A stretch of DNA of 57,026 nt, from NCBI GenBank assembly GCA_965203905.1, contig CBDBDQ010000004.1, positions 1 through 57,026 on the forward strand, in the 5' to 3' direction. The notes under the pieces are model-generated. The model did not search any database, had not been told where the DNA came from, and saw only the letters and a list, made by a program, of their open reading frames with translations. The DNA comes from Spirochaetia bacterium (GTDB lineage Bacteria; Spirochaetota; Spirochaetia; SZUA-6; Bin103). Positions 20,850-56,377 of this stretch are shown here, one piece after another. The position numbers and the translations under genes were made by a program. Each line of letters opens with the position of its first letter. The stretch's first letter is position 1.

Positions 20850-21013
20850 GCTTCGCCGCGGTTGGGTAGTCCTACTCGCGGTAGATGTGGTGTGCTGGGT
20901 ACAACCGACGTGCATCTCTTGTGGGGCCTCCCTCCCGGCCCCCCCCACAGAGGCGCCAGGGACAATTCCGTGGACCTGACCAAGCCGCGTTACACGGCTC
21001 TGGGTAGATCTCT

Positions 21014-23077: not shown

Positions 23078-23116
23078 GTGTGCACACGTTCATTGAGTGC
23101 ACAGAACGAACACAGG
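23078..23116 (+). promoter_or_regulatory. Putative parS/operator repeats (second cluster at 23724-23766)
   Basis: TGCACACGTTCAT..GTGCACAGA..GAACA(C/G) present upstream of parA and at its 3' end. Confidence 0.55.
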
Positions 23117-23129
23117 GACGGCTTCATTT

Positions 23130-23753
23130 ATGAGAACCATCGCTCTCATCAGCATGAAAGGCGGCAGCGGTAAGACCACGCTCGCACTGCATCTCGCCAC
23201 CGCCGCAGCGGAACACGGCCACAACGTTGCCGTGCTCGACCTTGACCCGCAGCAGTCAGCAGCGAAGTGGGGAGACCGGCGGACGATGCCGGTTCCCGTG
23301 GTCCTGGCTGCACCTCCCAGCCGGCTCGACCCGGAGCTGCAGCGGGTCGCCGACGCCGGCGCCGATATGGTGCTGATCGACACGCCACCGCGGGCTGGCT
23401 CCGACAACGCGGCCCTGGCCGCCGCCCGTGCGGCCGACCTGGTGGTGCTGCCGTGTCGGCCCGCCATTCTCGACCTCGAAACGGTCGCCAGCACGGCAGC
23501 CCGTGTGCACGACGTTGCCCAAGTGCCGGTCGTAGCGGTGCTGAACGGCTGTCCCAGCCAAGGGCGTACTGCCGAGGAGGCGGCCGTGGCCCTGGTTCGC
23601 CTTGGCGTAGAAGTGTGCCCGGTCCGGATCGGGCAGCGAATAGCGTTCGCGCGCTCGCTGCTCGATGGCCGTACCGCCCCTGAACTTGAGCCAGGCGGCC
23701 GCGCCGCCGACGAGACGGCACGACTGCACACGTTCATCGCGTGCACAGACTGA
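23130..23753 (+). CDS. parA: ParA (type Ib) partition ATPase
   Basis: KGGSGKTT, DLDPQQS, IDTPP, ADLVVLP. Confidence 0.95.
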   Translation: MRTIALISMKGGSGKTTLALHLATAAAEHGHNVAVLDLDPQQSAAKWGDRRTMPVPVVLAAPPSRLDPELQRVADAGADMVLIDTPPRAGSDNAALAAARAADLVVLPCRPAILDLETVASTAARVHDVAQVPVVAVLNGCPSQGRTAEEAAVALVRLGVEVCPVRIGQRIAFARSLLDGRTAPELEPGGRAADETARLHTFIACTD

Positions 23754-29830: not shown

Positions 29831-29833
29831 GAA

Positions 29834-37900: not shown

Positions 37901-38057
37901 TATGGCAAAAGGACCGCCTGTTGCCGCTCCAATCGGGTATTTTGCCAGCGCCCTACTAGAACCCTGAGTTGATGGATAGGGCCGTCAGCGCTTCCGAGGG
38001 TGCACACCGGTACATAGAGGGTGCGCACCGGTACATAGAGGGTGCGCACCGGTACAT
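37861..38057 (+). repeat. 21-bp iteron-like repeats (3 tandem at 37996-38057 plus 2 in gene end)
   Basis: GAGGGTGC(A/G)CACCGGTACATA; followed by inverted repeat CTCTACCCCT/AGGGGTAGAG at about 38110-38150. Confidence 0.8.
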
Positions 38058-38505
38058 CATCTGCCGAAAGGAGCCACTGTAGCGGCTCTGAACGGGGTCT
38101 TTGGACCTCCTCTACCCCTACCTCTACAGAGGAGGGGGGGAGGGGTAGAGCTTCGCTTCGCTCCGCCCTCCCCCTCAGCGCTCCGCACCCCGGCCCCTTA
38201 TGGGCCGGCCCGCTGCGCTTTTTCCGGGAAGCCGCGGTGGGGTTGGCTCAGGGAGATCCAGAGGCCATTCTACGGTTGATTGTCCCGGGTACTCCCGCCA
38301 CACTGCGTTCCAACGACCGGATAGACGACTCGTGGCCCATGCCGGGTCACTGGTCGAATACAACAGCTCCACATAAGGGCAGGGAGTAGCTACCCGGCCC
38401 CGGAGCGAATAGCCAGAACCTCAGGAATAGATGTGCCACGGGTGCAGTCTGTCCGGTCGTAAACGGCCCGGCTCCTTTGAGCAGCGGTCGTGGGGAGACA
38501 CCGGC

Positions 38506-39084: not shown

Positions 39085-39633
39085 ATGACACAACCGAAGG
39101 AGCCACCCGCGCAACGGACAGTGAATCAGCCCGTCAACCGCTGGCGGTTGGTACTTTGCGCGGCCGGGATCGAGCCGCGCAGAGTGCTCCGTGTGTACCC
39201 CGCCGGCAGCTACTACCACACCTGCATGCTGCTGCGGAAGTACCTCAATTCAGACCGCATACCGCACTGGAAGTACGTGAAGCCGCTGTCGCACCGGGCG
39301 GACAGTGAGGAGTGGCAGCGGGCGGAAGCGGTGCGCACCCACATGCACTGCCCGCTGATCGCGTCGCCGGTGTGGCAGCTTGAGCGCGCGCCGGCGGGGG
39401 ACTGGCCCTCGGATTTGTTCCTCGTGCCGCGGCCGAAGGGAATGTGTTGGAAGTGCGACCGTCGCGTGGAGGGGCGCGCTATTCTGTGCCCGGAGTGCCG
39501 GGTGGCGCGCCGGAACGCCTACAGCGCATGGATTCAGCGCTACAAGCGGCAGCGGGAGCGGCTGGCTGGCAAGAAGCCTCGTGCGCGTACAACGTTGACA
39601 ACCACTCCTGGGAGGACAGAGAGGAATGGGTGA
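39085..39633 (+). CDS. Hypothetical protein with zinc ribbon
   Basis: CWKC...CPEC; overlaps next start. Confidence 0.6.
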   Translation: MTQPKEPPAQRTVNQPVNRWRLVLCAAGIEPRRVLRVYPAGSYYHTCMLLRKYLNSDRIPHWKYVKPLSHRADSEEWQRAEAVRTHMHCPLIASPVWQLERAPAGDWPSDLFLVPRPKGMCWKCDRRVEGRAILCPECRVARRNAYSAWIQRYKRQRERLAGKKPRARTTLTTTPGRTERNG

Positions 39634-40384
39634 CCAAATGCATGGCCCGATCGAGCCCAACGAGGGAGCTGATCTGGAGAATGAGCCGGCGGCAGAGCCC
39701 GAGGAGAAGATGACGCTCGAGGAGGCGATGGATCGGCTCCTCGAGCGCACCGGTGATCCCGAGGCGCCGGACGAGGAGCGCCGGATCCGTGCGACGAAGA
39801 TGCTGGTCCGGCACAGATTCTTCCAGGTGAAGCTCGCCGACGTCTGGAGGGAGTTCAACCCAAACACGACCGCGAGCGAAAAGAGCTGCATGCAGGCCGC
39901 ATACCGGGAGATCGCGTGGCTGAACAAGACGTACCCGCTGGACCTGGGGCTGCTGCTGGAGATCCATGGGATGGGCGACTCGGCGCTGCTCGAGGAGCTC
40001 AAGAGGCTGATGCGCGCCACCACGCTCATCAAGTCGGGCGTGAAGAGAAAGATCGATCCGGACACGGGCAAGGTGGTCTCGGAGGAGTACCAGTTCATCG
40101 AGGTGCGGGACAACCGCGCCTGGGCCGACGCGATTCAGAAGTGGATGACGATCATGGGCTACAGGGTGCGCCGGGAGCCACCGACGAAGGTGAAAGACAT
40201 GCCGGTGACCCAACAACACGTGACGCCGGAGCAGCTCGCGCCGGACGCGACCACGAGCCAGGCGACGACGATAGCGCCGGTGGAGAAGGTGAGCCAGGAG
40301 GAGACGGAGAAACGGCTGGCGGACTATCTCGCGCGCAAGAGGCGCCAGCGTGCGCAGCAGAGCGACGAGGACCTGCTGAAGTGA
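39626..40384 (+). CDS. Hypothetical phage-like protein (terminase small subunit-like position)
   Basis: Strong codon bias; coupled (GTGA) to a short truncated ORF at 40381. Confidence 0.55.
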   Translation: MGDQMHGPIEPNEGADLENEPAAEPEEKMTLEEAMDRLLERTGDPEAPDEERRIRATKMLVRHRFFQVKLADVWREFNPNTTASEKSCMQAAYREIAWLNKTYPLDLGLLLEIHGMGDSALLEELKRLMRATTLIKSGVKRKIDPDTGKVVSEEYQFIEVRDNRAWADAIQKWMTIMGYRVRREPPTKVKDMPVTQQHVTPEQLAPDATTSQATTIAPVEKVSQEETEKRLADYLARKRRQRAQQSDEDLLK

Positions 40385-40496
40385 TTACCGAGGGCAAGGC
40401 CGACCGGCTCAAGCTGCTGGGCGCGCGGGTCGACCTCATGTCATTTATCGGCAGTGGGCTGGCCGCCCGCTGACTGATTCGGGTACAAGCCTTTCC

Positions 40497-41768
40497 ATGA
40501 GTTGGAGGGCGACGATGCGCAGTAGTACGGTGCGGCGGCCAGTCAACAGGCGGGGACAGGCAAGGCGACTGTTGCCTTCTCTCGCAGTGGTCGTTCTGGT
40601 TCTTGCGGGTTGCGAAGATCCGACACAAATGGAGCCGGCCCCGGTAGAGCCACCGGGGCCGGGGACGGAAGGCTTCACTCCCGACCAGGAACGAGTAATT
40701 GGATTTCCAGCGCTCTTTCACGGCGGCCACGCGGAGGAAGTGAAGGAAGCCAAGGAAGAAGCCGCGCGAGTCACCGCGATGCACGGCCGCGGCGGGACCG
40801 GGAAGGGCCAGCTCGTGGGCACGATCGAGTCCGGAGCGAACGAGGAACACCCGGACCTGAAAGGCAAGTTTGCGCACAAGTGCGCCATGGGCCAGTGCAA
40901 CGACGGGCGTCCCAACAGGGACGATCACAGCCCCCTGCTCGACACCGACGATCACGGCACCCTGGTCAACGGCGTCATCGCCGCGCGCAAGAACGGATCC
41001 GGGGTGTACGGCGTGGCCTACGAGGCGCGCATCGCCTCATACGGGAACACGGCCTACACGCTGTACCCCTGGGGCAACGACTGTGGCGGCGTTCCCAACT
41101 GTCCGTCCGGGCTGAGAGACAAGCGCCACCAGTGGAGCGAGCTGTTCGATCAGGAGATCGCCCGCGGTATCGACTGGATGCGGTCGCTCGACGTCGGGGT
41201 CATCAACTTCAGTTGGGGCCGGACCTACGAGTGGAGCCGGGAGAAGGAGACGCGGTACGGAATCACCGCGGCGACCGTCCGCGCGATCATGCCGGTGACG
41301 CTGCAGGCGTTCAAGGCGTATGCCGACGCCGACGGAGTTGCGGTGTGGGCGGCCGGCAACGGCGACAGCCTGCACCCGGCCGTGGAGGGAATGGTGCCCA
41401 GGTACTTCCCGGAGTTGGAGAAGGCGTGGCTTACGGTGGTGGGGATCGGCACGGACGGCCGGATCGGCGTGTTCTCCCACTACTGCGGTGACGCCGCCGA
41501 CTGGTGCTTGGCGGCCCCGGGAGAGGTAGTGACGACCCACCGCGGCGGAAATTGGATCTTCGCCGGCGGAACCTCCATCGCAGCGCCCTACGTCGCGGCC
41601 GGCCTGGCCGCGCTGAAGAGCAGGTTTCCGAGGATGAGCTACCAAGAGCTACGCGCCCACATTCTCGCGACCGCAGACAAAAGCCCACCGTACGACGACC
41701 AGGCGGTGTACGGACAGGGGCGGCTCGACCTGGACGCGGCGTCACGGTCGATAAGCGACACCAAGTAG
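40497..41768 (+). CDS. Subtilisin-family S8 serine protease, lipoprotein
   Basis: LAGC lipobox; HGTLV, AAGN, GTSIAAPYVA; catalytic Asp motif reads TIESG. Confidence 0.9.
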   Translation: MSWRATMRSSTVRRPVNRRGQARRLLPSLAVVVLVLAGCEDPTQMEPAPVEPPGPGTEGFTPDQERVIGFPALFHGGHAEEVKEAKEEAARVTAMHGRGGTGKGQLVGTIESGANEEHPDLKGKFAHKCAMGQCNDGRPNRDDHSPLLDTDDHGTLVNGVIAARKNGSGVYGVAYEARIASYGNTAYTLYPWGNDCGGVPNCPSGLRDKRHQWSELFDQEIARGIDWMRSLDVGVINFSWGRTYEWSREKETRYGITAATVRAIMPVTLQAFKAYADADGVAVWAAGNGDSLHPAVEGMVPRYFPELEKAWLTVVGIGTDGRIGVFSHYCGDAADWCLAAPGEVVTTHRGGNWIFAGGTSIAAPYVAAGLAALKSRFPRMSYQELRAHILATADKSPPYDDQAVYGQGRLDLDAASRSISDTK

Positions 41769-41801
41769 CTCGGGTCCCGGCTGCCGATACTCTGAAACGA
41801 G

Positions 41802-42422
41802 ATGTATGCGGTGGTGTTGAACCAAGCCGAGGAGTCCGCCTACGACGACCAGGAATGGTCCCGCTACCACTTCCCGCGCACCTACCGCTCCAACATCGAG
41901 AGGGGATCCCGGTTCGTCTACTACCGCCCCGGAGCCCGCTGTTATTTCGGCATGGGACGAATCGGCCGGGGCTGGCGCGACCCGCAGCGCTGCGATCACT
42001 GGTTTGCGGAGCTGGTCGGTGCGCGGGAGTTCCCGCGCCCGGTCTTCTACCAGGACCGGCTGGGCCGCTACCTGGAGCGCCGACCGGAGATCCGCCGGCC
42101 GGCCTTTCAGCGTTCCGCGCGCTGGATCGATCGGGAGGTCTACGACCGCATCCTCTACGGTTCCTGGCTGTGGGCGGTTGTTATCAACGGTGAGGCGTTC
42201 CGGCGGGAGCTCGCTGGTGGAGCGCAGCGGGCGGCGGCGCTGGCTTGGGTGAGGCGTCAGAAGGAGAAATTATCGGCAGTGGGCTGGCCGCCCGCTGACC
42301 GCGGCACCAAGTGTCCGTGTTCGGGGGCTTCGGGTCCCGGGTGTCGGACTGGATTCGGCTCGACGACTGAACCGCTCGCGGTGTTGGGCACCTCTGCGGG
42401 GCAGCGCTCTAGTGGCGGTTAG
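41802..42422 (+). CDS. PUA/EVE-like domain typical of N-terminus of HNH restriction proteins; no nuclease domain seen
   Basis: YDD....RYHFPRTY, FVYYRP..YFGMGRI; 3' end reads through a dif-like site. Confidence 0.5.
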   Translation: MYAVVLNQAEESAYDDQEWSRYHFPRTYRSNIERGSRFVYYRPGARCYFGMGRIGRGWRDPQRCDHWFAELVGAREFPRPVFYQDRLGRYLERRPEIRRPAFQRSARWIDREVYDRILYGSWLWAVVINGEAFRRELAGGAQRAAALAWVRRQKEKLSAVGWPPADRGTKCPCSGASGPGCRTGFGSTTEPLAVLGTSAGQRSSGG

Positions 42423-43123
42423 CGCAGGTGGGTATAGACGGAGAATTTGGCCATTTCGGAGTCGGTCATCCAGTGCATCTCGTCCGCGGGCGCAGCCTGG
42501 AGCGTGAACCAATAGAACTCCTGATCGATGGCGAGGGCGCGGTAGTAGTCGAGGTACATCCGGTGTTCCTCGGCATCACGGTCAATGGTGTCACCGGTCG
42601 CGGCGCCGTCGGCCCAGCTATGGACGCCGATCTTGGCACCGCGCTCGACGATACGCTGGACCCCGGCCAGCAGCAGGTCGGTGCCGCCGGAAGCGACCAG
42701 ACCACCGGCCGGCAGGTAGGTGGTGTAGTTCGCTTGGCGCAGCATGAGACCGAGCTCCAGGTTGGTGGTATCGTCCGCCGAGCCGGGTACAGAGGTCAGC
42801 ACGACTACCCCCACGTCGGGCGCGGACAGCAACGCCTCGTGCACGCGGCGCGCGCTCCGGCGGTTGACGACGCCCTTGATGTACAGCAGGTTACCGCGTA
42901 TCGAAAGCCGTAATCGGTCGCCCTCAGGTTCGACAAAATCGGCAGCAGTCAGGTGCTCGGCTACCGACCGTGCCAGTCGCTCCATGTCGGCGCCAGGGAC
43001 CGGATCACGGTCCGGCAACGTCAACGCCGCAGCGTGGCCGCCGCAATATACCGCGACGCTGCTGAGCAGCAGGCCTGCGGTCGCAGCCACGCGCAGCGTT
43101 CTACAGGCGATGGCTTGCAGCAT
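42419..43123 (-). CDS. Secreted ClpP/crotonase-like (COG3904-type) protein
   Basis: VPGSADD, VASGGTDLLLAG, IGVHSW, MHWMT. Confidence 0.7.
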   Translation of the reverse strand: MLQAIACRTLRVAATAGLLLSSVAVYCGGHAAALTLPDRDPVPGADMERLARSVAEHLTAADFVEPEGDRLRLSIRGNLLYIKGVVNRRSARRVHEALLSAPDVGVVVLTSVPGSADDTTNLELGLMLRQANYTTYLPAGGLVASGGTDLLLAGVQRIVERGAKIGVHSWADGAATGDTIDRDAEEHRMYLDYYRALAIDQEFYWFTLQAAPADEMHWMTDSEMAKFSVYTHLR

Positions 43124-43465
43124 CAGTACACCAGTACGGCCCAAACAACGAGTTATGCACGGGGATCTCCTCAAAGGATCCCGGCGGCATAGGGCGTCGC
43201 CGGGCTTGTGTACCCATGGCAGTGTGGTGGAGCGCGCTACGCGACGCAAGGAGAGGTGGCGCTGTGGACAGTAGGTGGTATTATCGGCAGTCAGCAGCCC
43301 GCTGACCGTGGCGCGCGGCGACCGCAGGTGCGCCGCGACCGCGGGTTGACGAACATCCCCGCGTAGTCCAAGCATTGATTGGATGGGCGATGAAGCATCG
43401 ACGTACCTGGATCGTGATCTGGCGTCCGGAGGCGGACGAATGAAGAGTCCTATAGCCGTGTACAA

Positions 43466-43711
43466 ATGGACCTGACGGTAATCGCAGCGTTGGTGTTGGC
43501 TATCGCCAGTTCCCTTACTGCTGGCGCCACATTGCTTAACAGTCTCGTCAATCGAAATATGATAAAGCTACAGAGAGAAATGAAAGACCTACAGGAAAGG
43601 GACCTCAAGATGCGGGAAGACCAAGCGAGAGTATCGGAGATCATGAGGGTCGCAAATCAGGTAATCTCGGACCGGCTCATGGACAAGGAGCAAGGAGACA
43701 AGAGTGGCTGA
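43466..43711 (+). CDS. Small TM + coiled-coil protein
   Basis: Low-GC ORF, N-terminal TM. Confidence 0.6.
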   Translation: MDLTVIAALVLAIASSLTAGATLLNSLVNRNMIKLQREMKDLQERDLKMREDQARVSEIMRVANQVISDRLMDKEQGDKSG

Positions 43712-43997
43712 ACAGTTTACTACGGTTCGATTGTTGGGCAAGGTCAGCGGTTACGAAATCTCCTTCAGGCTGAGAGATCTGAGAGAGTCGAACGAGGAGA
43801 TCACTGAACAACGGGTAGGACACATCATCAACTCTGTGATCGACGCTAACCGATCAGAGTACAGCGATGTGTTCCCGCATCTCACTTCCACCCAATACAG
43901 AGAGTATCTCAGGGAAGTAATCGCGACGCTTGAGAAGACGGGATTGAGATCATCAATCCAATTCCCACCGCCGCATCGAGTTCCTGCTCCCGTATGA
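43704..43997 (+). CDS. Hypothetical protein
   Basis: Overlaps previous ORF, AGGAG RBS. Confidence 0.55.
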   Translation: MAEQFTTVRLLGKVSGYEISFRLRDLRESNEEITEQRVGHIINSVIDANRSEYSDVFPHLTSTQYREYLREVIATLEKTGLRSSIQFPPPHRVPAPV

Positions 43998-44297
43998 ATA
44001 TCGAGGGGTGTACCGGGCCTCGGGACTCACAGGCGTCAACCTTCCTTGACTGGCGCCGCGGCGTCAAGGCGGAGTTCCCGTGCCGGCGCTCCCGAGGGTG
44101 TCAGAACGCGGTATTATCGGAAGTGGGTGCGGCCGGCTGGGATTCGCTGGAAGTGCGACCGCGTGGGGTGGTCGGGCGGGAGACGCACTACGTGAACAAG
44201 ATTCAGACTGACCGCACTAGGCAAGCCGGGTAGTGGGTCAGTTTATTTGCCCATTTCAGAACTGACCACTACAGGGCCAGGTTGGAGGAGATCAGTT

Positions 44298-44816
44298 TCA
44301 ATAAGGTCCCCATCGGTAGCTCGCTATTGTCTCTATGAGAGCAATCACTTTTTCATCTGAGAGATCTGTAGGTTCGAAACCGTCCGCACGCATAGCCTGA
44401 TACATATTTTTCATAACACCGAAGACTCTTGCTCTATCGGCATCAGTTGATGGACCACCCTGGATTGACAGCTCACTGTGGAACGTCTGAACTGCCTTTA
44501 GTACGTCATCAGAAGCTATCAGCAAAAGGTTTTCAGTAGCCGCATTAAATCGACGGCCGTTAGCACCAGAGATGGCGTACTGTAGAGTCTGCAAATAGCT
44601 GGTGTACGCCTCCCGCTTCAACTTCTGAAGATCGGCTGTACGATCCAGGCCTTTCTCATAGGAATACCCAACTAGACCGAAAACTGCAGCAATCACGACC
44701 ACTATGACAGGAGTCAAGACCTCCAACCTGCGGCGCCGTTCGATCTTCTCGAACCCCTGCCGCATGGCCGTTGCCAACTCGTCTATCGTCTGTGGAGAGG
44801 GATTCTGGTCGCTCAC
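44298..44816 (-). CDS. Hypothetical membrane-anchored protein
   Basis: AGGAGG RBS before GTG; one TM then helical domain; low GC. Confidence 0.65.
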   Translation of the reverse strand: MSDQNPSPQTIDELATAMRQGFEKIERRRRLEVLTPVIVVVIAAVFGLVGYSYEKGLDRTADLQKLKREAYTSYLQTLQYAISGANGRRFNAATENLLLIASDDVLKAVQTFHSELSIQGGPSTDADRARVFGVMKNMYQAMRADGFEPTDLSDEKVIALIETIASYRWGPY

Positions 44817-44910
44817 TCGTCCGCCTCCTTGCGGTCCGGGGGCCGTCACCTGACTGGCGCTCGCCGTCTACTTGTCCTCCCCCCGGCAGGGCATCTGTCC
44901 GGGCAATTAG

Positions 44911-45279
44911 TCAACGACCTCCCCTCGGAAACGGGTATTCCGTACATATCGAAAGCGGAACCCGGTTGATGGCAGTCCTGAGTACTGCTCCCCCTTCGAG
45001 GGTGGGATCTATGTCGATTTCCAGTTGCGACTCCCCGAAAACGAGCGCACCGAGGGCGCACATCTCCATCGCCTCGAGCTGGTCTCGGGCGATAATCCCG
45101 AGAGTGGCGCCAGCGCTCCAGCCGCTTTGTTCTCCGCCTGCCTCAGTCACGAGCGCATCGTGCACGAACCCGACCCGCACCGTGTGCTTGGCGCCTGAGC
45201 ATCCAACCAGGGCCACCGCTACAGCCAGGGCGATTCCTCGCAGCACGTCGGTTCCCCTTACGACAGCCTCGGCACTCAC
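44911..45279 (-). CDS. Small lipoprotein
   Basis: LVGC lipobox. Confidence 0.55.
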   Translation of the reverse strand: MSAEAVVRGTDVLRGIALAVAVALVGCSGAKHTVRVGFVHDALVTEAGGEQSGWSAGATLGIIARDQLEAMEMCALGALVFGESQLEIDIDPTLEGGAVLRTAINRVPLSICTEYPFPRGGR

Positions 45280-45519
45280 CAAGCGTCAACCATCCTACGA
45301 CTGGCGCCGCGGCATCAAGCCGGCGCTTGGTAGACAGTTGCACTCTTCCCGGAAGTGGCAGGTCACTCGGCGGTGGCCTCCGAGGTGCCACCCGTGGGCG
45401 CCGCACTATGGGGTTCGTGTGGCTAACTTAGACTCGGCCAGCAGGGGCGGCGCAGGTCCGCCGTCCTCCCTGGGGTGCCCCAAGTACCACCGGACGCCGT
45501 TCGCTCAGCTCCTGGTCGC

Positions 45520-45915
45520 CTATTCTTTTTGGGGGAGCGTAACATTCACTTCTTCGGTGTCGAGCATGTACCAGTCCCCGGTAGCCAAATCGATGATTAG
45601 GGGTACCAGTCCCGCCACGAAATCCAGTACGATCCAGCCGAACCCCACAAACCGCGATATCCGATAGGTTCTGGTGTCGTGCCCTTCCTTCCTGAACTCC
45701 ACCACATGGTCTTCCCGAACCGTCAGGTTCACCTGTACGGGGGTGGTGCCCACATAGTAGCCATCAACGTACACTTCGGCCCCGGCCGGCTGAGTAAGAA
45801 GATCTACGGATGGTGTCTTGTTGTTGAACATCGTCGCGCAGCCCGTGAGTGTCACGGCAACGACCAAGCCGACAAGGGTTCCTCTGACTGAATGGTGGAT
45901 CATCGACGTCACCAT
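45520..45915 (-). CDS. PEGA-domain lipoprotein
   Basis: LTGC lipobox; TQPAGAEVYVDGYYVGTTP, RKEGH. Confidence 0.85.
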   Translation of the reverse strand: MVTSMIHHSVRGTLVGLVVAVTLTGCATMFNNKTPSVDLLTQPAGAEVYVDGYYVGTTPVQVNLTVREDHVVEFRKEGHDTRTYRISRFVGFGWIVLDFVAGLVPLIIDLATGDWYMLDTEEVNVTLPQKE

Positions 45916-46228
45916 CTTCGACTGGCGCCACGGCGTCAAGCTGGAGTCTTCCGCGCTGGCGGTCCCGAGGGGACAGAACAGGGGATTACCGGCAGCGGCA
46001 GGTCACTCGGGCGGTGGCCTCCGGGGTGCCGCCCTTGGGCGCCGCTGCACGGCGAGCGGGTTGGTGGGACGCTCAGCGCACCCGTGATGGCGACAGAACG
46101 GCCCCAACCGGTGGTGCGGCCCCGAAAACGTGGCTTGCGTACCTCGAAGGCGTGGACCGACTGTCCTTGACCCTGCTGCCTAAGCTTCTGATCATTTGCC
46201 CCCCAGCCGTTTGCAAGGAGCGACATTG

Positions 46229-46480
46229 ATGCGGATCACGAGGGAAGGTGCTCGCAGTCACCGCGATACCAAGTATATGGAATCCTCCGAATGCTCGATC
46301 CGATGGGATCAAAAGGCCCGGCAGATTGAAATACGAGCCCGGATGGTAGAGGACTTTAGACGCTCAGGTGGCCAGGACGATCATCAAAGGAAAGTACGGT
46401 ACGACTTCCTGATAGAGCTGAGTAACAAAGAAGTGGCCGACCTGATAGAGAAAGTCGTGCAAGTTGTTGTAGAGAAATAG
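46229..46480 (+). CDS. Hypothetical protein
   Basis: AAGGAG RBS, clean low-GC ORF. Confidence 0.6.
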   Translation: MRITREGARSHRDTKYMESSECSIRWDQKARQIEIRARMVEDFRRSGGQDDHQRKVRYDFLIELSNKEVADLIEKVVQVVVEK

Positions 46481-46534
46481 ACAGGGGAGCAACAGGGATG
46501 CGCGATTACCGGGGCGGCGTGAGTTGTCACCGCT

Positions 46535-47437
46535 GTGGTTGGGAGAGACTACTGGAGGGACGCAGTGAGCAACCGTAGCGGCCAAGCATCTGCGGTGGTA
46601 GACCTTGCTACACTATCTGACCGAGAGTTGTTCGGAGCCGTTTCAGAAGGAATAGGACACATAATCGAGAATGCGGATAGTTTGAATTGCTCAGCGCTTC
46701 TACTTTCCTCAAAAGGAGAGCATAGGACGTCGTCTATCATAAAGGGCTTTGCCGAAGAAGAAGCAGCAAAGGTGCTTGTACTTATGGATGTTGTAAGGTG
46801 CCCTCGATCTTGCCAGAAACGACGAGTAGTAACCTTGAAGCGCTTTTATGAGCATCTGTCCAAAAGAATATACGCTGAAGCGTGCTGGTGGAGACCTTCC
46901 AACTACATAGATCTGATAAGCTACGTGGATGCGAGCCGGAAGAGTCACGAGATAGACGGCCCAAACAATTACGACTGGATATTAGGAAACCCTATACTAA
47001 GTCATCGTGAAGCAGAGATTTACGTTGATTATGTCCGAGATTTAACCGATGAGAACGGCAGAAGATCTTGGCAGATGCCCTTTCTAAACGGTATAAAGGG
47101 AAGTTATGTCGCTCCTAAATGTCTCGACGTGGTGAGTGCGTTAGAGAGATCAGGTTCTACAACTCCTGGGGGTATAGAGATCGTTGCTGAGACTTGGCGA
47201 GGCTTCAATCCCGAACCAGGCACCACGAGTGCAGAAGTCTACAGGACTACATTGGCTATGCTACGCAGACTTTACCGGTCAGGATTACTGCATGACGACC
47301 ACTGTGATACCGTATACAAGCGCCTTGATCGTTGGCCGTTTCCGATGTGGCATGTCGATATGAAAATGTCGATAGTCGATATCGAACAGCTTCGCCAAGA
47401 GAGAGAGGAGACCATCGCGGAGATCGGATTACACTAG
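46535..47437 (+). CDS. AbiV-family abortive infection (HEPN-like) protein
   Basis: IIENADSL..A.LL, AEEEAAKVLVLMD, FYEHLSK, YVDY; start may be 46565. Confidence 0.75.
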   Translation: MVGRDYWRDAVSNRSGQASAVVDLATLSDRELFGAVSEGIGHIIENADSLNCSALLLSSKGEHRTSSIIKGFAEEEAAKVLVLMDVVRCPRSCQKRRVVTLKRFYEHLSKRIYAEACWWRPSNYIDLISYVDASRKSHEIDGPNNYDWILGNPILSHREAEIYVDYVRDLTDENGRRSWQMPFLNGIKGSYVAPKCLDVVSALERSGSTTPGGIEIVAETWRGFNPEPGTTSAEVYRTTLAMLRRLYRSGLLHDDHCDTVYKRLDRWPFPMWHVDMKMSIVDIEQLRQEREETIAEIGLH

Positions 47438-47972
47438 TATCGAGGACCGAGACCGACCCGATGAGGTGTGTCGGCTGGAACGTCCCCTGAGCAGCGCGGC
47501 CGGGATCATCCCCGTGGGCGAGGTAAGAGGACCTCCTCTATCGGAAGTGGAAAATCACTCGGCGGCGGCCTCCGAGGGTGGGGACGCCACGGGCCGGTCA
47601 GTGCACCCTCGATGCGCGCCACACGCTTCGCCAGGGCGTGGTGGGACACCAGGGGCCGGTCAGCGCACCCGGCCAGCAGCTTTCATGGAGTGGGTTCTTT
47701 CACCTGGTCGAGCGTCTCGATGATCGCCTGCAGGTTCTTGCGTAGCCGCGCGGTCGCCTCGGCCAGGATCGCCGCGGTGTCAGGCTTCGGGACCGCGCCC
47801 GCCTGCGCGGCACGGAAGTCCGGCGCCTCCTGGACGATGGACAGGTAGGGCTGCTCGCCGTGAGCATCCCCGTGGCGGTACAGTTCGAAGATCGCTCGAC
47901 CCCCTCCCTTCTCAATGTCGTCCACCGACACGCCCACCAGGCGAATCCCGAGTGTCTGGTGTTCTTCATTCT

Positions 47973-48908
47973 CTAGATATTCATTATCGTGAGCACCGTT
48001 GCCAGGCACACTTTGCGGGCGAATTCCATGTTCAGTGTCTCGGCGGTGTCGCTTGGCTTGTGGTAGTGCGGTGTCCGCATCTCGGCCGTATCGGTAAGCA
48101 TGATCGCTGGTAAACCACGTTCCCAGAACGAATAGTGATCCGACCGGAGCAGATCGTGGAAGTGGTCCTTCATCTGTTGCAGCGGGACATTGACGAAGAC
48201 GGCAGGAAGGTCTACCGGTCCGCGGCACTGATCGAAACATACCCGACCCAGATCATTCGAATGCTCGCAACAACTCACTATGGCGACGAAATCACCACGG
48301 TTCCGATCAAAGCGGTAGTGGGGGAAACAATCCGGCTCGATACCCTTTGGATAGTTCTGAGAATCGCCCACGTATCCTACCGACTCCAGGTTGATAACGC
48401 CGCCAATGTCGATACAACGGCATTTCAGGCCGTCCACCCACTCACGACTGCCGATGAGCCGCGAATCATTGTCGCCCTGGACCGGGCTGCCCTCTTCCAA
48501 GGTGAAACCGATGAACCGAATCGGTCCGGCGGCGCGATGTTTGATCAGCAACCGGGCCGCTTCGAGCATCGCCGCCACCCCGCTCGCATTGTCGCCGGCG
48601 CCCGGACTCTTCCACACGGTGTCGTAGTGCGCGCAAATCACCAGTTCCGGCCGGTCCGTTCCCGCGTTGATCAAGCCCTCGACGTTGCGAAACACGCCAC
48701 AAAAGCCATCTAACTTAAAGAAGTGTTCGCTGACAGCCGCACCCATCTCGTACAGCCGCTGTCCAATGTAATTCGCCGCGACGTCGAGCCCCTTCGGACC
48801 GGTGTCCGGATGACGAATTCCGGTGAGGGCCTCTACGTGCCCCCGAATACGTGCAACGTCTGGACCATCGCTCGTTTTACCAGGCTGCGACCGTTCAGGT
48901 AGATTCAT
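47973..48908 (-). CDS. M28-family metallopeptidase
   Basis: AHYD, GAGDNASGVA, FTLEE, INLESVG, SDH, HYH..SD. Confidence 0.92.
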   Translation of the reverse strand: MNLPERSQPGKTSDGPDVARIRGHVEALTGIRHPDTGPKGLDVAANYIGQRLYEMGAAVSEHFFKLDGFCGVFRNVEGLINAGTDRPELVICAHYDTVWKSPGAGDNASGVAAMLEAARLLIKHRAAGPIRFIGFTLEEGSPVQGDNDSRLIGSREWVDGLKCRCIDIGGVINLESVGYVGDSQNYPKGIEPDCFPHYRFDRNRGDFVAIVSCCEHSNDLGRVCFDQCRGPVDLPAVFVNVPLQQMKDHFHDLLRSDHYSFWERGLPAIMLTDTAEMRTPHYHKPSDTAETLNMEFARKVCLATVLTIMNI

Positions 48909-48942
48909 CAGTCGAAGTTTAAGACCGGGAGATCCAGTCTCG

Positions 48943-49164
48943 TCATCGGCGCAACGCCTCGGCTGGGCGCCAGGGGCCGGTCAACGCGCCCAGTGCGCCC
49001 TCGATGCGGGCAACGCGCTCCGCCAGGGCGTGCAGGGCGCGTCGCAGCTCGCCCAACTCGGCGACTACACGGCCATGCAAGGTCAGGATCAGCGGCACGA
49101 GCACGGCCAACAGGGCCACGCCGACGCCCGCTATGGCGATTGCCTCGGCACTCACAGGCGTCAC
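48943..49164 (-). CDS. Small TM + coiled-coil protein (decayed copy at about 47590-47680)
   Basis: AIAGVGVALLAVLV..LAERVARIEG; similar architecture to 969-1229. Confidence 0.55.
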   Translation of the reverse strand: MTPVSAEAIAIAGVGVALLAVLVPLILTLHGRVVAELGELRRALHALAERVARIEGALGALTGPWRPAEALRR

Positions 49165-49635
49165 CATCCTCGACATGGTGCCGCGGCGTCAAGCTCGCGG
49201 CGATCCCCCCCGGCGGGGCGACAGAACCAACGATTATCGGCAGTCCTCTCAAAGGCTGAGACCCCGGCAGCCCCAGCCGACCCCGACTCGCTCAGCGCCC
49301 GTTCATCAGCTCGAGCATGACCCGGACGTCCGGAGCCTGCACCGCCGCCACCGACTCGACTGCGAGAAAGACCACCGTCGGCGGCCGCGAGGCCGGCCAG
49401 CCGGCGCAGCCTGCCGCGATCAGGATCGCCAGCAGCGCCAGCATGACGGCCCGCCTCGCGAGCTCCCCAAGCGAAGGGAGGCCGGCGGGTCGCAAGTACC
49501 CCTCTTCCCGAGCTGAATGGCTTGGCGGCGCTGCGACGACCTCTCGGTGGTGCATGCCTTCGTCATCGACAGGCCGCGGGCCTGGGTTTACCGGGCCCCC
49601 CCGGCCCTTGCTCATGGTAGGGTATAGGCGGTGCC

Positions 49636-49720
49636 ATGGCTGTGCAGGCGGATCCGGCAACGCGCGACCGTGCCGTAGCGGGTACGCCGTTACCGCTGGA
49701 GAACGGTGACCGGCTCACCC
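49636..49720 (+). pseudogene. Uma2-family N-terminal remnant
   Basis: PLENGDRLT motif then loss of similarity. Confidence 0.45.
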
Positions 49721-49862
49721 CGCGGAGGCCGCGGTGTCATGACGACCGACCCCTGGCGCCCGCCGGCGAACGGCACGCCGACAACCGGCCTCCAGCCCGC
49801 AAATCTGAGGAGGTGTGAATGACGCTCAAAGAGAAGATCGAGGCGGTCGGGACGCCGTTCTG

Positions 49863-50777
49863 ATGCCTGTTCCTGACTTCCAGGCACTCTTACTTCCGGC
49901 TCTCAAGGCGCTATCCGACACTGCGGAGACTCCAGTTTCGACGGTGCGGGAACGTGTCGCCGCTACCTTGGGACTCAAATCCGAAGATCTTCGAGAATTG
50001 CTTCCGAGCGGCAAACAGCCGGTATTCACAAATCGCGTGAGTTGGACCGTGATTTCCCTGGAGCGAGCCGGTCTTTTGGAACGTATCCACCGTGGCGTCT
50101 ATCGGTTGACAGTCGAAGGGCAACGCTTGTTGTCCAGGAATCCTTCGCGGATCGACCGCGACTTGCTTCGGACGTACTCGAGTTACACCGAATGGGAACG
50201 ACGAACGAGGCCCAATCCCCCTGACAAATGCGAAAAGGATAAGCTCACTGAAACGCCGGAGGAAACGTTGGCCCGCGTCACCGAACAGTTAGACAGAGTG
50301 CTTGAAGCCAACTTGTTACAGAGAGTTCTCGATTCGGCGCCAACGTTTCTCGAACGAGTGGTCCGTGACTTACTGGTCAAGATGGGTTACGGCGGTGGCG
50401 ATCCCGCGATGGGACGCGTGACGGGCAGTTCCGGCGATGGTGGGATCGACGCCACGATTCGGGAAGACGCACTTGGTCTAGACGAAGTGTATGTTCAGGC
50501 GAAGAGATACGCCGATGGCAACACGGTAAGCGAAGGTGCGTTGCGTAACTTCGCGGGAGCAATCGACGCTGCCGGTACGAACAAGGGAGTATTTGTCACC
50601 ACGGCCAGCTTCTCTCGTTCCGCAAGGGAGTACGTGGCGCGGAGTCCGAAACGCATCGTTTTGATTGACGGCCAAGAACTGTCGCGCCTTATGCGGCTGC
50701 ACGGAATCGGTGTGCGCGTGACGGACCGTCACGAAGTCAAGCGGATCGACGAAGACTACTTCGAGAGCTCATGGTAA
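49863..50777 (+). CDS. mrr: Mrr restriction endonuclease (Mrr_N + Mrr_cat)
   Basis: MPVPDFQ, NRVSW, GDGGID, VYVQAKRY, KGVFVTT, LIDG. Confidence 0.93.
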   Translation: MPVPDFQALLLPALKALSDTAETPVSTVRERVAATLGLKSEDLRELLPSGKQPVFTNRVSWTVISLERAGLLERIHRGVYRLTVEGQRLLSRNPSRIDRDLLRTYSSYTEWERRTRPNPPDKCEKDKLTETPEETLARVTEQLDRVLEANLLQRVLDSAPTFLERVVRDLLVKMGYGGGDPAMGRVTGSSGDGGIDATIREDALGLDEVYVQAKRYADGNTVSEGALRNFAGAIDAAGTNKGVFVTTASFSRSAREYVARSPKRIVLIDGQELSRLMRLHGIGVRVTDRHEVKRIDEDYFESSW

Positions 50778-51754
50778 GAAAACGGTACACCGAGAACGAA
50801 ATAATCCTCTGCACCTACATCGCTCGATTTGGACGCAGCTTCATCAACGAAGAAACGATCAGTTCCCTATTTGATCGACCTGCACGTTCAGTGAGAATGA
50901 AGGTTCAGAACATCGCACGCATGCTGAGCGAGGAAGGCTATCGCTACAGCCAAGAGGTGTCCCCCTGGGGAGGAGGACACCGTACGGACTGGCATACCGT
51001 CCAACCATATGCCGATCTGGAAGAGCCTGATTTCACAGCGCGGGTCAAGGAGATGCTCGCCCGCGGCCGGCACCAATCCGGGGCTTCTCGGGAGCGGAGT
51101 CACCAGCCGAGAACGGATCAGCGCGACTTCGAGCCCATCCAAGCCGAGCTCGCAGCCATCAAGGAGGACGTGGCGGCTGTCAAGGTTGCCATAGATAGCC
51201 TCGGCGCTGACATCGAGTCCCTCCTGAACGGCCCTTGGGACAAGATCAGCGAGGAAACTCGGACTCTGTTCCGCGAGCTCGAGAACTCGGTGAAATCGCT
51301 GGGCAGTGTGCAAACAGAGGAGATCACGACGGTGAGCGCGAGGCACGTTTCCAAGAGCGAGATCCATTTCAAGTGCACGGCCGCCGGCGCCACGCCGTCG
51401 GTAGTTGCCTCCGTCCATTTGCTCGTCTGGGGCGGCCTCGACGTACACATCCACGAAAAGCACCTGAGTGCCATCCCTCTCGAAGCTGGCTTCACTCGCC
51501 GTATCGATAGAGGGTACCGAAAGATCATGATCCGCGACCGGAAACACATCCGAAGGGCGGCGCCGATGTTGCGTGCAGCCTACGCCGATCTCACAAGCTC
51601 GGACATGCCAGGGCGAAAGGCGGCCCTCAAACCGGTAACCCGCCGGCGAGCTGGCGACTCACCGCCAGCTCGCCGTCTTCCTCCCAATCAGCGAGGAAGA
51701 CGACGGATGGGAGACCGCGACTATCTGCAGCTTGGTGAGAATCACGAACCGTAG
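50771..51754 (+). CDS. Hypothetical protein coupled to mrr (possible DUF5655-like C-terminus)
   Basis: Overlapping start; N-terminal RSVRMKVQNI HTH-like region, coiled coil, C-terminal alpha/beta domain ending LRAAY. Confidence 0.6.
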   Translation: MVRKRYTENEIILCTYIARFGRSFINEETISSLFDRPARSVRMKVQNIARMLSEEGYRYSQEVSPWGGGHRTDWHTVQPYADLEEPDFTARVKEMLARGRHQSGASRERSHQPRTDQRDFEPIQAELAAIKEDVAAVKVAIDSLGADIESLLNGPWDKISEETRTLFRELENSVKSLGSVQTEEITTVSARHVSKSEIHFKCTAAGATPSVVASVHLLVWGGLDVHIHEKHLSAIPLEAGFTRRIDRGYRKIMIRDRKHIRRAAPMLRAAYADLTSSDMPGRKAALKPVTRRRAGDSPPARRLPPNQRGRRRMGDRDYLQLGENHEP

Positions 51755-51858
51755 ACGACTGTCGACGGAAACAGGTTTATCGGAAGTGGCAGGTCACTCG
51801 GCGGTGGCCGCGCGGTGTCCTTTGGGCCGCCGCCCTCGTGCTGCTGTATAGTGGCACC

Positions 51859-52479
51859 ATGATTCGCCTTGTGTGTGTACTGTTGTTTGTGGTGGCGTCC
51901 GTGACCGCCGCGGCGCTGCCGGAGTGCTTGCCGGAGTGCGTCGCGCAAAACCTGAATAATGCCGACTTGAGCGGCGCCGACCTGAGCTATACAGACCTAT
52001 CCCGCGCGGGCTTGATGCGCGCCGACCTGAGCTATGCGGACCTATCCTTCGCGGACCTGCACGGCGTGACCGGTATGCTGATGAACCTACAGGGTGCAAC
52101 GCTCATGTTCACGGACTTCATCGGGGCCGCAATCCCGTGGGCGGACCTGCGAAACGTCCGCGGTGGTAACGTACACTTATCGCGCGCGGACCTGAGCGAT
52201 GCCGACCTGAGCGGCGCTGACTTGCATTTCTCCGGGATGGGCGGCGCGGATCTATCCCGCGCGAACCTGACGGACGCGGACTTGAGCAACGCTTTCTTGG
52301 GCGGCGCAAACCTGACCGAAGCGAACCTGACCAGCGCGAACTTGGCGGAGGCTGAGCTGTTCGGCGCTACTTTGTTCCGCGCGAACCTGACGGACGCGGA
52401 CCTGACCGGAGCGAAACTGGAAGCGATACGCGGCTGCGACACGAAAACGCGGCCGCGCCCACGTTTGCCCGGCTGCTGA
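51859..52479 (+). CDS. Secreted pentapeptide-repeat protein
   Basis: Signal peptide; A(D/N)Lxx repeats. Confidence 0.92.
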   Translation: MIRLVCVLLFVVASVTAAALPECLPECVAQNLNNADLSGADLSYTDLSRAGLMRADLSYADLSFADLHGVTGMLMNLQGATLMFTDFIGAAIPWADLRNVRGGNVHLSRADLSDADLSGADLHFSGMGGADLSRANLTDADLSNAFLGGANLTEANLTSANLAEAELFGATLFRANLTDADLTGAKLEAIRGCDTKTRPRPRLPGC

Positions 52480-52920
52480 AATCGACCCCGGCGGCGCCGG
52501 TTGCCTTGTAGGCGAAGGCGCCGCGGCGTGGCGGAACAACGGCCCGGCGCCTGGAGGCTGCGTGCGGACTTCCCCGACTGGTGCAGCGGCGGTGAAGCCG
52601 AAGCCCCCCCGTTCGCGGTTCGCCGCGCAAGCGACAGAACATCCCTTATCGGCAGTGTCAGGGGCCTCCAGGGAGCCGGAGGCCCCTTGTGGCGGGCACC
52701 GCTTGACGACTCGCCTTCGTCATTGGACCAATGATACTTAGTGGTTGACGCCGTTGTCCTGAGCAGGTTCATTGGGAACCCATACAGTAGTAGAGCCCGC
52801 GGCCGGTAACCGCGAGCTCTACTCGTCCAGCGCTTGTCACAGCAAGCCGAAGAACGTTGCCAGGGCAACCATACCCGCCTCGGCTTCCTGTGCCAAGCGC
52901 GCGATTCGCGGAGGCAAATC

Positions 52921-54413: not shown

Positions 54414-54716
54414 CTAAGCCGCCGACCGTGGCGTCACTCGTTCGGTGATCTCACGGCCTGACGCGATCTCCGCTCGCCGCAGCTCCCACGCCTTCTGCAG
54501 GTTCAGCCAGAGCTGCGGCGTCGTCCCGAAGTACCTCGCCAGCCTCAGCGCCGTGTCCGCGCTCACGCCTCGCTGGCCATTCAGGATCAACGTGACCCGG
54601 TTCACCGGCACGTCCAGCGCCTTCGACAACGCCTTGGCCGACAGACCAAGCTCGTTCAGCTCCTCACGCAGTACCTCGCCCGGATGCACCGGCTTCATCC
54701 CGTTCTGCACGCTCAT
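54414..54716 (-). CDS. higA: HigA antitoxin
   Basis: PVHPGEVLREE, ADTALRLARYFGTTPQLWLNLQ. Confidence 0.95.
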   Translation of the reverse strand: MSVQNGMKPVHPGEVLREELNELGLSAKALSKALDVPVNRVTLILNGQRGVSADTALRLARYFGTTPQLWLNLQKAWELRRAEIASGREITERVTPRSAA

Positions 54717-54731
54717 GCTCAGCCCCTCCAC

Positions 54732-55010
54732 TCAGTGATAGTCCACGATCTCCACGTCGCACGGTCCCTCGCCCGTCCACCGGAAGCAGATGCGCCACTG
54801 CGCGTTGATCCGGATGCTGTGTTGCCGGGCACGATCGCCACGCAGCACTTCCAGCCGGTTGCTCTGCAGGCCAGCGAGATCTGGTAGCGCCTCGGCGCTG
54901 TCCAGCAACGTCAGCCGGCGCGTCGCCTGGTCGGCGAATCCCTCAAAGGCAGGCACCCGCTCTCCCTCGAAGAACCGTTGCGTATCTCGATCCTTGAAGC
55001 TTCGGATCAT
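54732..55010 (-). CDS. higB: HigB (RelE-family) toxin
   Basis: MIRSFKD, NRLE.LRGDR..QHSIRINAQWRICF, VEIVDYH; toxin-first order. Confidence 0.95.
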   Translation of the reverse strand: MIRSFKDRDTQRFFEGERVPAFEGFADQATRRLTLLDSAEALPDLAGLQSNRLEVLRGDRARQHSIRINAQWRICFRWTGEGPCDVEIVDYH

Positions 55011-55066
55011 GGATTCAGACCTAGCCAGCCTTGACTGTACGGAAGATTACGGCTTACGTAAACCCA

Positions 55067-56377
55067 ATGAGTAGTAGTACAACACCTGATGCCCGCAGCA
55101 ACCTGGAAGCGGAACGAATGGTGATCGGGGCGGCCCTGTACGACCCGGAAGTGTACCGAGACGTGCATGCGCACGGGCTGCGCGCCCACATGTTCGAAGA
55201 CCTGCCCATGAGCCGCGTCTGGCAGGCCATCGGCACCACCATAGAAGCCGGCGAGCCCGTTCAGACGCTTCAGCGCGTCGCCGCCCACCTTCGAGATGAC
55301 GCCGGGCTGACGGTCACCGATCTGGCCAAGCTGCAGTCGGCCGTACCGAGCACCGCAAACCTTTCCTTCTACGTCACCAGTGTGCGCAAGGCGCACATCC
55401 ACCGCGAGTTGGATCGGCTTCCCGAGCTGCTCAGCGATGAGGATCCCGGTGTCCGTGCGCGTGAGATCGCACAGCAGGCGCGAACCCTGGCCGAGCTCGG
55501 CAGCAGTCAGCGGATCAAGGTGCACAGGGACTGGAGCGGTGAGGCGCCGCCTCGAGAGTGGATCTGCGAGGGCTGGCTGGGCTACCGCCTGACCCTGTTC
55601 ACCGGCCACGGCGGCCGCGGCAAGTCTCGCCTTGCCCTGCAGCTCGCTGCGGCCGTCGCCAGCGGCACTTACGCGCCGTGGCTCCCCCCTGAGTCCGACG
55701 ATACGCGAACCGTACCAGGTGCTGCCATCGACGGCGCGGCGAGTGCATCGGCGGTGCTGCTGGCGAGCTGGGAGGATGAGCAAGACGAGGTGCACCGACG
55801 CTTGCAGACGATGGCAATGGACGAACGGCTGCCGTGGGCCGCGCCGGAACGTATCGAGAATCGCCTGAACTTCGCCGACCTGGCCGGTTACGGCCCGCTG
55901 TGGGAGACCACCGAGTACTCAGGCGGCAAGCTGACCGACACCGGGCACGAGCTGCGAGAGATCGCCGAGCGGATCGAGGCGCGGCTACTGATCATCGACC
56001 CGCGGGCTGCAGCCTACGCCGGCGATGAAAACAACCGGGCACAGGTGCGTGCGTTCATTTCGCACTGGGACCGCTGGGCACGGGAGACTCAGTGTGCGGT
56101 GCTGGTCGTGGATCATTTGCCGAAGTACGCTACCAAGCCGAGAAAGGACGACGACGACGAGGGGCCGGCGTATGCTGGGTCTACCGATTGGCACAACGCG
56201 GCTCGTAGTGTGTGGACCCTGGAACGAACCGAGAAGGGCGGCACGTTGCTACGGTGCGACAAGAGCAACTACGGCCCGGCTCCCAAGCCGGTGCACCTGA
56301 CCAGCGGTGACGGCTGTGCCTGGTTTGCCACTGGAGCCGAGGCCACGGACAGGCTCCGTCCCGGAGAGGTGGCATGA
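55067..56377 (+). CDS. RepA-like (AAA_25, SF4) helicase with DnaB-like N-terminal domain
   Basis: LEAERMVIGAAL; GHGGRGKS; SWEDE; LLIIDP; VLVVDH; GSTDWHNAAR; KSNYG. Confidence 0.85.
   Translation: MSSSTTPDARSNLEAERMVIGAALYDPEVYRDVHAHGLRAHMFEDLPMSRVWQAIGTTIEAGEPVQTLQRVAAHLRDDAGLTVTDLAKLQSAVPSTANLSFYVTSVRKAHIHRELDRLPELLSDEDPGVRAREIAQQARTLAELGSSQRIKVHRDWSGEAPPREWICEGWLGYRLTLFTGHGGRGKSRLALQLAAAVASGTYAPWLPPESDDTRTVPGAAIDGAASASAVLLASWEDEQDEVHRRLQTMAMDERLPWAAPERIENRLNFADLAGYGPLWETTEYSGGKLTDTGHELREIAERIEARLLIIDPRAAAYAGDENNRAQVRAFISHWDRWARETQCAVLVVDHLPKYATKPRKDDDDEGPAYAGSTDWHNAARSVWTLERTEKGGTLLRCDKSNYGPAPKPVHLTSGDGCAWFATGAEATDRLRPGEVA

Follow-up and report, generated by a model that had tools for sequence, protein, structure and literature searches.

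Ten directly repeated dif-like sites divide the accessory region of a probable Spirochaetia plasmid into nine gene modules

The DNA analysed here, to which we refer as the window, takes in contig C4 from end to end (CBDBDQ010000004.1; 57,026 nt), one of five contigs in the assembly of a Spirochaetia bacterium (GCA_965203905.1; G000 below) whose chromosome, C5, spans 7.79 Mb. Between positions 40428 and 52656 we find ten short repeats, all on the + strand and in the same direction, that resemble dif, the chromosomal site of Xer recombination, and that mark off nine intervals of 629–2532 bp with a GC content of 0.53–0.66 and genes on both strands (Table 1). The repeats have the letters and coordinates reported in a first-pass annotation of this DNA, which had also described intervals of 0.6–2.5 kb with unrelated genes differing in GC and strand, in keeping with our measurements. 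An open reading frame (ORF) that leaves the 3' end of the contig resumes in frame at base 2, with a sense codon at the junction, so C4 is probably circular; it carries the plasmid hallmarks ParA (23097–23753), a DnaB-like helicase (55031–56377), HigBA (54414–55010) and a small CRISPR-Cas locus, and we take it to be probably a 57-kb circular plasmid. No further site was found between 52656 and HigBA. At the other end of the array, the backbone ORF at 39626–40384 has no close relative in 23 genomes of the family, the top match being 29% identical, and megablast against PLSDB finds no similar plasmid; DNA of the plasmid is found too in sponge and coral metagenomes.

The top match to a position-weight matrix (PWM) of the sites anywhere in the genome is C5:5579639, GTAGACAGAA-TATACA-TTATCGGAAGT, which we take to be the chromosomal dif of the host. 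The dif site of E. coli has an 11-6-11 layout with an A+T-rich centre. A two-arm pattern with an A+T-rich 6-nt centre is present in exactly one copy in 22 of 40 relatives drawn from the genus, family and order, with centres such as TATACA, TATAGA, TATATA and similar, and the reversed control of this pattern gives 2 matches across 41 genomes. The flanks of the relatives' loci are syntenic with C5 5578–5584 kb in each of the six compared, and between G000 and the relative G010 some 31 nt around dif are kept and the adjacent intergenic DNA is not. In G010, which is a single contig, GC skew is +0.020 for the 200 kb to one side of the site and -0.020 for the 200 kb to the other, and a local maximum of cumulative skew lies 6.3 kb from it; in G000 the skew drops at dif from +0.04–0.06 to about 0–0.02, with a stretch of mixed skew beyond. 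Beside the chromosomal dif lie 1.7 kb of extra DNA with one 549-aa gene; we ruled this DNA out as an integrating mobile element that exploits Xer recombination (IMEX), a second site not being found. The host also has XerD-like and XerC-like genes 2 kb apart (C5:6458135–6461180), which score 298.5 bits against the XerD model and 286.6 bits against the XerC model and in which all six catalytic residues (R, K, H, R, H, Y) are aligned; a XerC-like/XerD-like pair is present in trans.

Measured against the arms of this presumed dif, AGTAGACAGAA and TTATCGGAAGT, the plasmid sites match at 8–11 of 11 positions on the right and 6–9 of 11 on the left, which supports their classification as dif-like sites sharing both arms with it, the layout that the first-pass annotation had recognised. 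Their centres are 6–7 nt long, no two alike and none that of dif. A two-arm position-weight scan recovers eight full sites; in the two others, scored at 40445 and 47538, only the right arm is strong (22.3 and 19.5 bits) and the left arm scores below 0, and a lone left-arm match lies at 46089–46098, inside module 6. The right flanks of the sites at 40428 and 42252 are identical over 19 nt. Allowing at most two mismatches, TTATCGGCAGT occurs 20 times in the window, as against 8.69 +/- 2.95 in shuffled sequences, none of 100 of which reaches 20; nine of the ten sites are among these matches, the tenth (45346) having three mismatches, and an additional + strand match at 43500 is without a left arm and was counted as chance. 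The exact motif TTATCGG[AC]AGT has 13 copies on both strands of the 7.99-Mb genome, seven of them on the + strand of this 12 kb, and a degenerate two-arm pattern has 13 matches in the genome as against 0 for its reversed control. No tyrosine or serine recombinase is encoded on C4, as had been claimed from the first reading: of the genome's 28 PF00589 and 4 PF00239 matches, none falls on the contig, and a Pfam scan of 55 window ORFs reveals none.

Genome-wide, the PWM finds 28 matches in 8 Mb, clustered on C4, C3 and two regions of C5 (Table 1) and marking boundaries at which flanks change partner, so that the scan, which had been proposed at first pass, shows the motif to be rare; three weak matches are probably chance, and flank similarity reveals further, more degraded copies. 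Some centres recur between replicons, gcactc being common to C4:45346, C5:1916093 and a degraded C3 site, and gcagtc to C3, C5:614963 and C5:1913615. A group of C4 backbone genes at 2963–5800 (a 293-aa ORF, RadC and two more) has homologues, with 51–95% protein identity, at C3:60613–62869, C5:1925904–1928350 and C5:4774024–4776103, and each set adjoins a full-length tyrosine recombinase. Since plasmid backbone homologues and such a recombinase are present together, the two C5 regions look like integrated plasmid relatives, and the chromosome thus seems to hold two of these. By PWM scan, no such site was found in about 170 unrelated loci totalling 1.76 Mb. As a separate observation, the chromosome carries three sets of three adjacent tyrosine-recombinase genes (C5:5305885–5308549, C5:6315347–6318011 and C5:2711368–2714154), two of them near-identical, which look like 'recombinase in trio' elements.

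The sequences around the sites bear signs of exchange. We compared the left and right 60-nt flanks of 27 sites, counting a score of at least 20 as a shared flank, and find 41 site pairs that share a flank, 36 of them on one side only, which places the switch of partner within the 27–28-nt core. The site scored at 49234, for example, resembles C3:77579 on the left (score 43) and not on the right (6), and that at 45986 shows the reverse with the C3 int2 site (6 on the left, 48 on the right); similar flanks are found on three replicons in combination with differing partners. Contigs of public sequencing runs, mapped onto window positions 37.5–57 kb, join the modules in other ways, as the first-pass annotation had suggested looking for. 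In the sponge-metagenome run X1, a 1231-nt contig passes from module 1 through the site at 42252 into the start of module 3 (42284 joined to 43301); module 2 is missing from this contig and is covered by a separate X1 contig. Contigs of runs X5 and X6 lead from the end of module 5 through the site at 44096 to the start of module 2 (44126 back to 42294); both runs also have the reference order, at similar depth (in X5, 13.5 against 10.7). Other strains or replicons may be the source of these alternative joints. Further joints (43295 to 49668, 43370 to 47581 and 45382 to 47643 among them) do not fall cleanly in sites and were not counted as support; such off-site joints may reflect repeats, in particular the ORF77 3' flank described below, or again other strains. 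In X1 and X2, 43.4–47.3 kb and 49.2–54.4 kb have largely little or no cover, and these runs are not informative on absence there.

The conserved DNA that flanks the sites derives from a single small gene. ORF77 (48943–49176, - strand) encodes a 77-aa protein with a membrane and a coiled-coil part and no assigned family, and it recurs next to dif-like sites on C3, C4 and C5. The block kept upstream of five sites is the 5' end of ORF77, on the opposite strand, and the stretch kept downstream of four sites is its 3' flank, so that many modules look like ORF77 units entered by other genes. In the relative G006, a unit of about 570 nt comprising ORF77 and one site (L084 1378–1950) stands where G000 has an empty spacer (C5:2049946–2049965). 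We rejected the alternative that the 50–100-nt upstream block is a displaced recombinase 3' end bearing the catalytic-tyrosine segment; tblastn with nine recombinase C-terminal segments gives 28 weak matches on C4, none of them at the upstream blocks.

The explanation that we favour, and hold to be moderately probable, is that the repeats are plasmid copies of the host dif, cutting the accessory region into nine modules that are shuffled by the XerC-like/XerD-like pair. The pair would bind the arms and swap strands in the centre, a plasmid site recombining with one of similar centre that lies on a second replicon or a circular module, and modules would be gained, lost or exchanged by such recombination. 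Both capture by XerCD, as first proposed, and an exchange that continues are what we infer from the pattern of sites, flanks and joints. Because no two plasmid centres are alike, deletion between neighbouring sites would on this proposal be disfavoured and the array would persist.

Several observations weigh against this explanation. By a rule given for Acinetobacter, unlike centres should block complete Xer exchange (PMC11705084); all ten plasmid centres differ, so by that rule no complete exchange would take place between them, and the assembly of the array is left unexplained. Centre length varies among sites, at 5, 6 or 7 nt. In G000 the presumed dif and the maximum of cumulative skew are 227 kb apart, and both Xer-like proteins score under the strict NCBIfam cut-offs (329.6 and 335.15). 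The evidence for alternative joints consists of contigs only, on several of which one side is short (20–38 nt), and some joints lie 30–80 nt off a site and not in it; no circle and no dated gain or loss event is observed in the public-run contigs. The 23 relatives of the family have 0–2 two-arm pattern matches each, which means that arrays are no common feature of the group in this sample. Finally, homologues of the module 2 gene and of the M28 peptidase gene of module 7 (the copy in the relative G018 and C5:1273209) have no sites at their boundaries, or the homology ends 120–350 nt before the sites.

The best-placed alternative, which we nonetheless consider rather unlikely, is that recombinases of the mobile-element family, maybe with a catalytically dead paralogue, work the sites, and that the likeness to dif is mimicry or shared ancestry. 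Full-length tyrosine recombinases are encoded at C3:56318–57295, C5:1932019–1933050 and C5:4767701–4768702, each 69–70% identical to P0066, each 12–22 kb from an array and each adjoining backbone genes common with the plasmid. The genome also encodes a homologue of about 294 aa (Table 1) that has lost five of six catalytic residues relative to XerC/XerD and to its own full-length paralogues (Arg I replaced by Gln, the beta-hairpin Lys deleted, His replaced by Asn, and the LGH His and the Tyr lost) and that retains the DNA-binding parts. In all six copies, genes or fragments, in which the 3' end is present, a dif-like site follows 50–90 nt past it; one copy is intact over the full family length and the others are frameshifted or fragmentary, and the dead form is conserved, at about 60–83% identity, in tens of relatives among public metagenome proteins. 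Since related elements encode full-length recombinases together with a site-adjacent dead paralogue, a trans-acting recombinase other than XerCD is possible, as the first-pass annotation had allowed, and we would guess that the dead protein binds the sites as a lock or modifies the activity of Xer. Against the element recombinases as the acting proteins, the arms match a dif that is kept in 22 relatives, most of them without arrays, which fits recognition by a housekeeping enzyme; none of the three full-length genes has a site directly downstream; and C4, whose array is the longest, has neither the full-length nor the dead gene. Distant loci that encode the same recombinase family are likewise without such sites, a metagenome scan returning distant recombinases only, at most 50% identical, whose loci lack them.

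Less probable again is that the array is the record of serial Xer-exploiting insertions into a single plasmid dimer-resolution site, the hybrid sites being inactive and at most one of them still working. The differences among all the centres, the two sites without a left arm and the lone left arm at 46089 fit such a history, as do the decayed ORF77 remnants that end many modules and the dead-recombinase copies, mostly frameshifted, elsewhere in the genome; the alternative joints, which single runs show together with the reference order and at a similar depth, the recurrence of the same flank types with different partners on three replicons and the right arms that are still near dif all speak against it. 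That the repeats are instead binding sites for regulatory or structural proteins (operators of the dead recombinase, promoters or terminators) seems to us very improbable, even though they are intergenic and the gene for a non-catalytic DNA-binding protein adjoins many sites elsewhere in the genome, because they do not overlap promoter-like sites, only one of eight terminator-like matches touches a site, no Rfam family is found in the window, genes approach the sites from both directions, and regulation would leave the match to a single-copy site of the replication terminus unexplained.

Returning to plasmid dif copies worked by the host pair, one of the closest known parallels is the pdif module of Acinetobacter. 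There, as here, the accessory genes of plasmids are split by many 28-bp sites resembling the host dif, the plasmid is without a recombinase and host XerCD is invoked, the centres vary, and toxin-antitoxin and defence-type genes lie in or near the cargo (PMC13141974, PMC11705084). The Acinetobacter sites alternate in direction and so define C and D modules; a single module thus lies between inverted sites, and excision is open only to pairs (PMC13141974), a C+D pair being cut out between direct sites of like centre (PMC13141974, PMC11705084). The present array differs, as had been noted at first pass, in that all ten sites are direct and have ten different centres, with no C/D alternation. It also differs in belonging to another host group and to a 57-kb plasmid with a DnaB-like helicase and ParA, and in that arrays here are found in integrated elements too and that a dead recombinase gene accompanies sites.

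IMEX such as CTX, RS1 and TLC of Vibrio cholerae share with the present elements the use of XerCD without a recombinase of their own, serial insertions that leave direct dif-like repeats with differing centres and, in some cases, a factor that alters Xer activity (PMC6744903, PMC9226527 and general background). The arrays here, on C4, on C3 and at 1.9 and 4.8 Mb on C5, have direct flanking sites and none is at the chromosomal dif: they lie on plasmids and on islands at least 0.8 Mb from dif at 5.58 Mb, which would set them apart from IMEX arrays; one plasmid site may have been the original resolution site. The modules, moreover, are units of 0.6–2.5 kb with 1–3 cellular-type genes and without phage genes. 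Plasmid Xer sites of the cer/psi type have dif-like arms and a non-dif centre of variable length; in such a system a single site is accompanied by about 180 bp of accessory sequence, and here there are ten sites, whose conserved flanks are ORF77 remnants and no common accessory region.

The first-pass annotation called the array integron-like, and for the layout this is a fair if loose analogy, small unrelated exchangeable gene units lying between recombination sites of the same direction. The analogy goes no further than layout: IntI and attI are both lacking, short dif-type cores of double-stranded DNA stand in place of folded attC sites of 60–140 nt, and with genes on both strands no one promoter serves them all. 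Integron-integrase models give only 17–24 bits, on the dead paralogues elsewhere in the genome, and an attC-like fold is not supported, five sites folded on both strands (10 folds) giving z-scores from -1.71 to +0.98 without a common long hairpin. The repeat array itself is real, and its dif/Xer reading holds.

A bolder reading, which we offer tentatively and with much less confidence than the shuffling of modules by the Xer pair, is that a family of plasmids and integrated elements runs a cassette platform in which modules bounded by direct dif copies are swapped between replicons by XerCD, the centres act as address labels and the dead recombinase, sitting on one arm, locks or opens the sites, the open state allowing a one-sided, FtsK-independent exchange. 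If true, this would be a functional integron analogue made from the machinery of chromosome resolution. Modules in Acinetobacter spread resistance genes, and their mode of movement is debated. To our knowledge, gene modules bounded by Xer sites have so far been described essentially for Acinetobacter plasmids, and an independent case would make the hijacking of dif for accessory-gene arrays a more general strategy. The present case is distinctive in its distant bacterial group, its all-direct sites, the spread of its arrays over several replicons of the same cell and its defence-gene cargo, and the combination of an all-direct layout, unlike centres and a dead recombinase beside the sites raises the mechanistic question of how such arrays are built and kept. 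The literature found, available in part, covers Acinetobacter dif modules, IMEX and integrons, and we found in it no description of an all-direct Xer-site array outside these known systems.

Table 1 Sites, modules and related features. Positions are those of the window unless a contig is named; aa, amino acids.
Feature	Position	Strand	Description
Site	40428–40455	+	GGTCGACCTCA-tgtcat-TTATCGGCAGT; first of array; right arm 10/11, left arm weak, 6/11
Module 1	40456–42269	+	S8 subtilase 40497–41768 (PF00082, 1.4e-39; PADLOC subtilase, 1.8e-14) and an unassigned ORF; GC 0.664
Site	42252–42280	+	AGGCGTCAGAA-ggagaaa-TTATCGGCAGT; dif-like
Module 2	42281–43280	-	ORF 42419–43465, no family found; true start probably within module
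Site	43263–43291	+	TGTGGACAGTA-ggtggta-TTATCGGCAGT; dif-like
Module 3	43292–44113	+	two small ORFs, no family; ORF77 5'-end remnant 44017–44068 at right end; GC 0.555
Site	44096–44124	+	GGGTGTCAGAA-cgcggta-TTATCGGAAGT; right arm exactly that of dif
Module 4	44125–45345	-	183-aa ORF 44298–44849, weak NTF2-like match below cut-off; ORF77 remnant 45261–45326
Site	45329–45356	+	GGTAGACAGTT-gcactc-TTCCCGGAAGT; dif-like
Module 5	45357–45985	-	PEGA-domain protein 45520–45939 (PF08308, 4.7e-9)
Site	45968–45996	+	AGGGGACAGAA-cagggga-TTACCGGCAGC; dif-like
Module 6	45997–47537	+	300-aa ORF 46535–47437, weak AbiV-type HEPN match below cut-off; GC 0.533
Half site	47521–47548	+	good right arm CTATCGGAAGT; left arm not recognisable
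Module 7	47549–49233	-	M28 peptidase 47973–48908 (PF04389, 2.7e-27) and ORF77 48943–49176; ORF77 3'-part fragment 47567–47670
Site	49216–49244	+	GGGCGACAGAA-ccaacga-TTATCGGCAGT; dif-like
Module 8	49245–51776	+	Mrr-type (type IV) restriction enzyme 49815–50777 (Mrr_cat, 1.3e-31; PADLOC mREase_IV, 1.3e-69) and 327-aa ORF
Site	51760–51787	+	TGTCGACGGAA-acaggt-TTATCGGAAGT; right arm exactly that of dif
Module 9	51788–52645	+	pentapeptide-repeat protein 51838–52479 (PF00805, 4.4e-39)
Site	52629–52656	+	AAGCGACAGAA-catccc-TTATCGGCAGT; last of array
PWM cluster	C4	+	8 matches
PWM cluster	C3 69.8–80.3 kb	-	5 matches
PWM cluster	C5 4.79–4.80 Mb	-	5 matches
PWM cluster	C5 1.90–1.92 Mb	+ and -	3 matches on +, one weaker on -
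Single PWM matches	C5:614963; C5:5362768		in addition to dif itself
Dead paralogue copy	C3:71737–72621	-	L001 7738–8622
Dead paralogue copy	C3:73180–74346		
Dead paralogue copy	C5:1915142–1916024		
Dead paralogue copy	C5:4799377–4800236		
Dead paralogue copy	C5:5361815–5362705		
Dead paralogue copy	C5:615054–615239		

Some of the module genes have homologues elsewhere. The module 2 gene shares 86% protein identity with C5:1913995–1914672 and, over 42404–43101, 89% DNA identity with G018:C1:557989–558685, in another genus of the family; the 3.7-kb G018 locus has no dif-like site, which suggests a recent horizontal transfer of the gene alone. The PEGA-domain protein of module 5 has a 61% protein homologue in the array at 1.91 Mb on C5, and the M28 peptidase gene of module 7 (47980–48860) has 83% DNA identity with its nearest chromosomal copy. 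The plasmid also carries a glycosyltransferase/TPR pair (11490–14409), with 75–89% protein identity to its nearest chromosomal copies; the nearest chromosomal copies of this pair and of the M28 gene all lie inside one 12-kb stretch, C5:1262434–1274090.

Elsewhere on the plasmid, two short CRISPR-like arrays (25853–25994 and 26603–26924) have repeat-plus-spacer units of 71–75 nt, and the cas genes within 27168–32677 include Cas_GSU0053 and Cas3, a 947-aa protein whose HD domain is C-terminal; no CRISPR adaptation genes are found among the window ORFs scanned, and a link between the CRISPR repeats and the dif-like sites was dropped, as their sequence and period differ. The window contains no tRNAs. 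A low-GC stretch (0.52–0.57) encodes a 2145-aa Calx-beta protein (14511–20948, - strand) and a collagen-repeat protein (21093–22514, - strand). At 37996–38057 and 38326–38477 lie three near-perfect 21-nt tandem repeats, possibly iterons or a partition site, and, next to them, some 140 nt of sequence that is present also on C3 and on both C5 islands.

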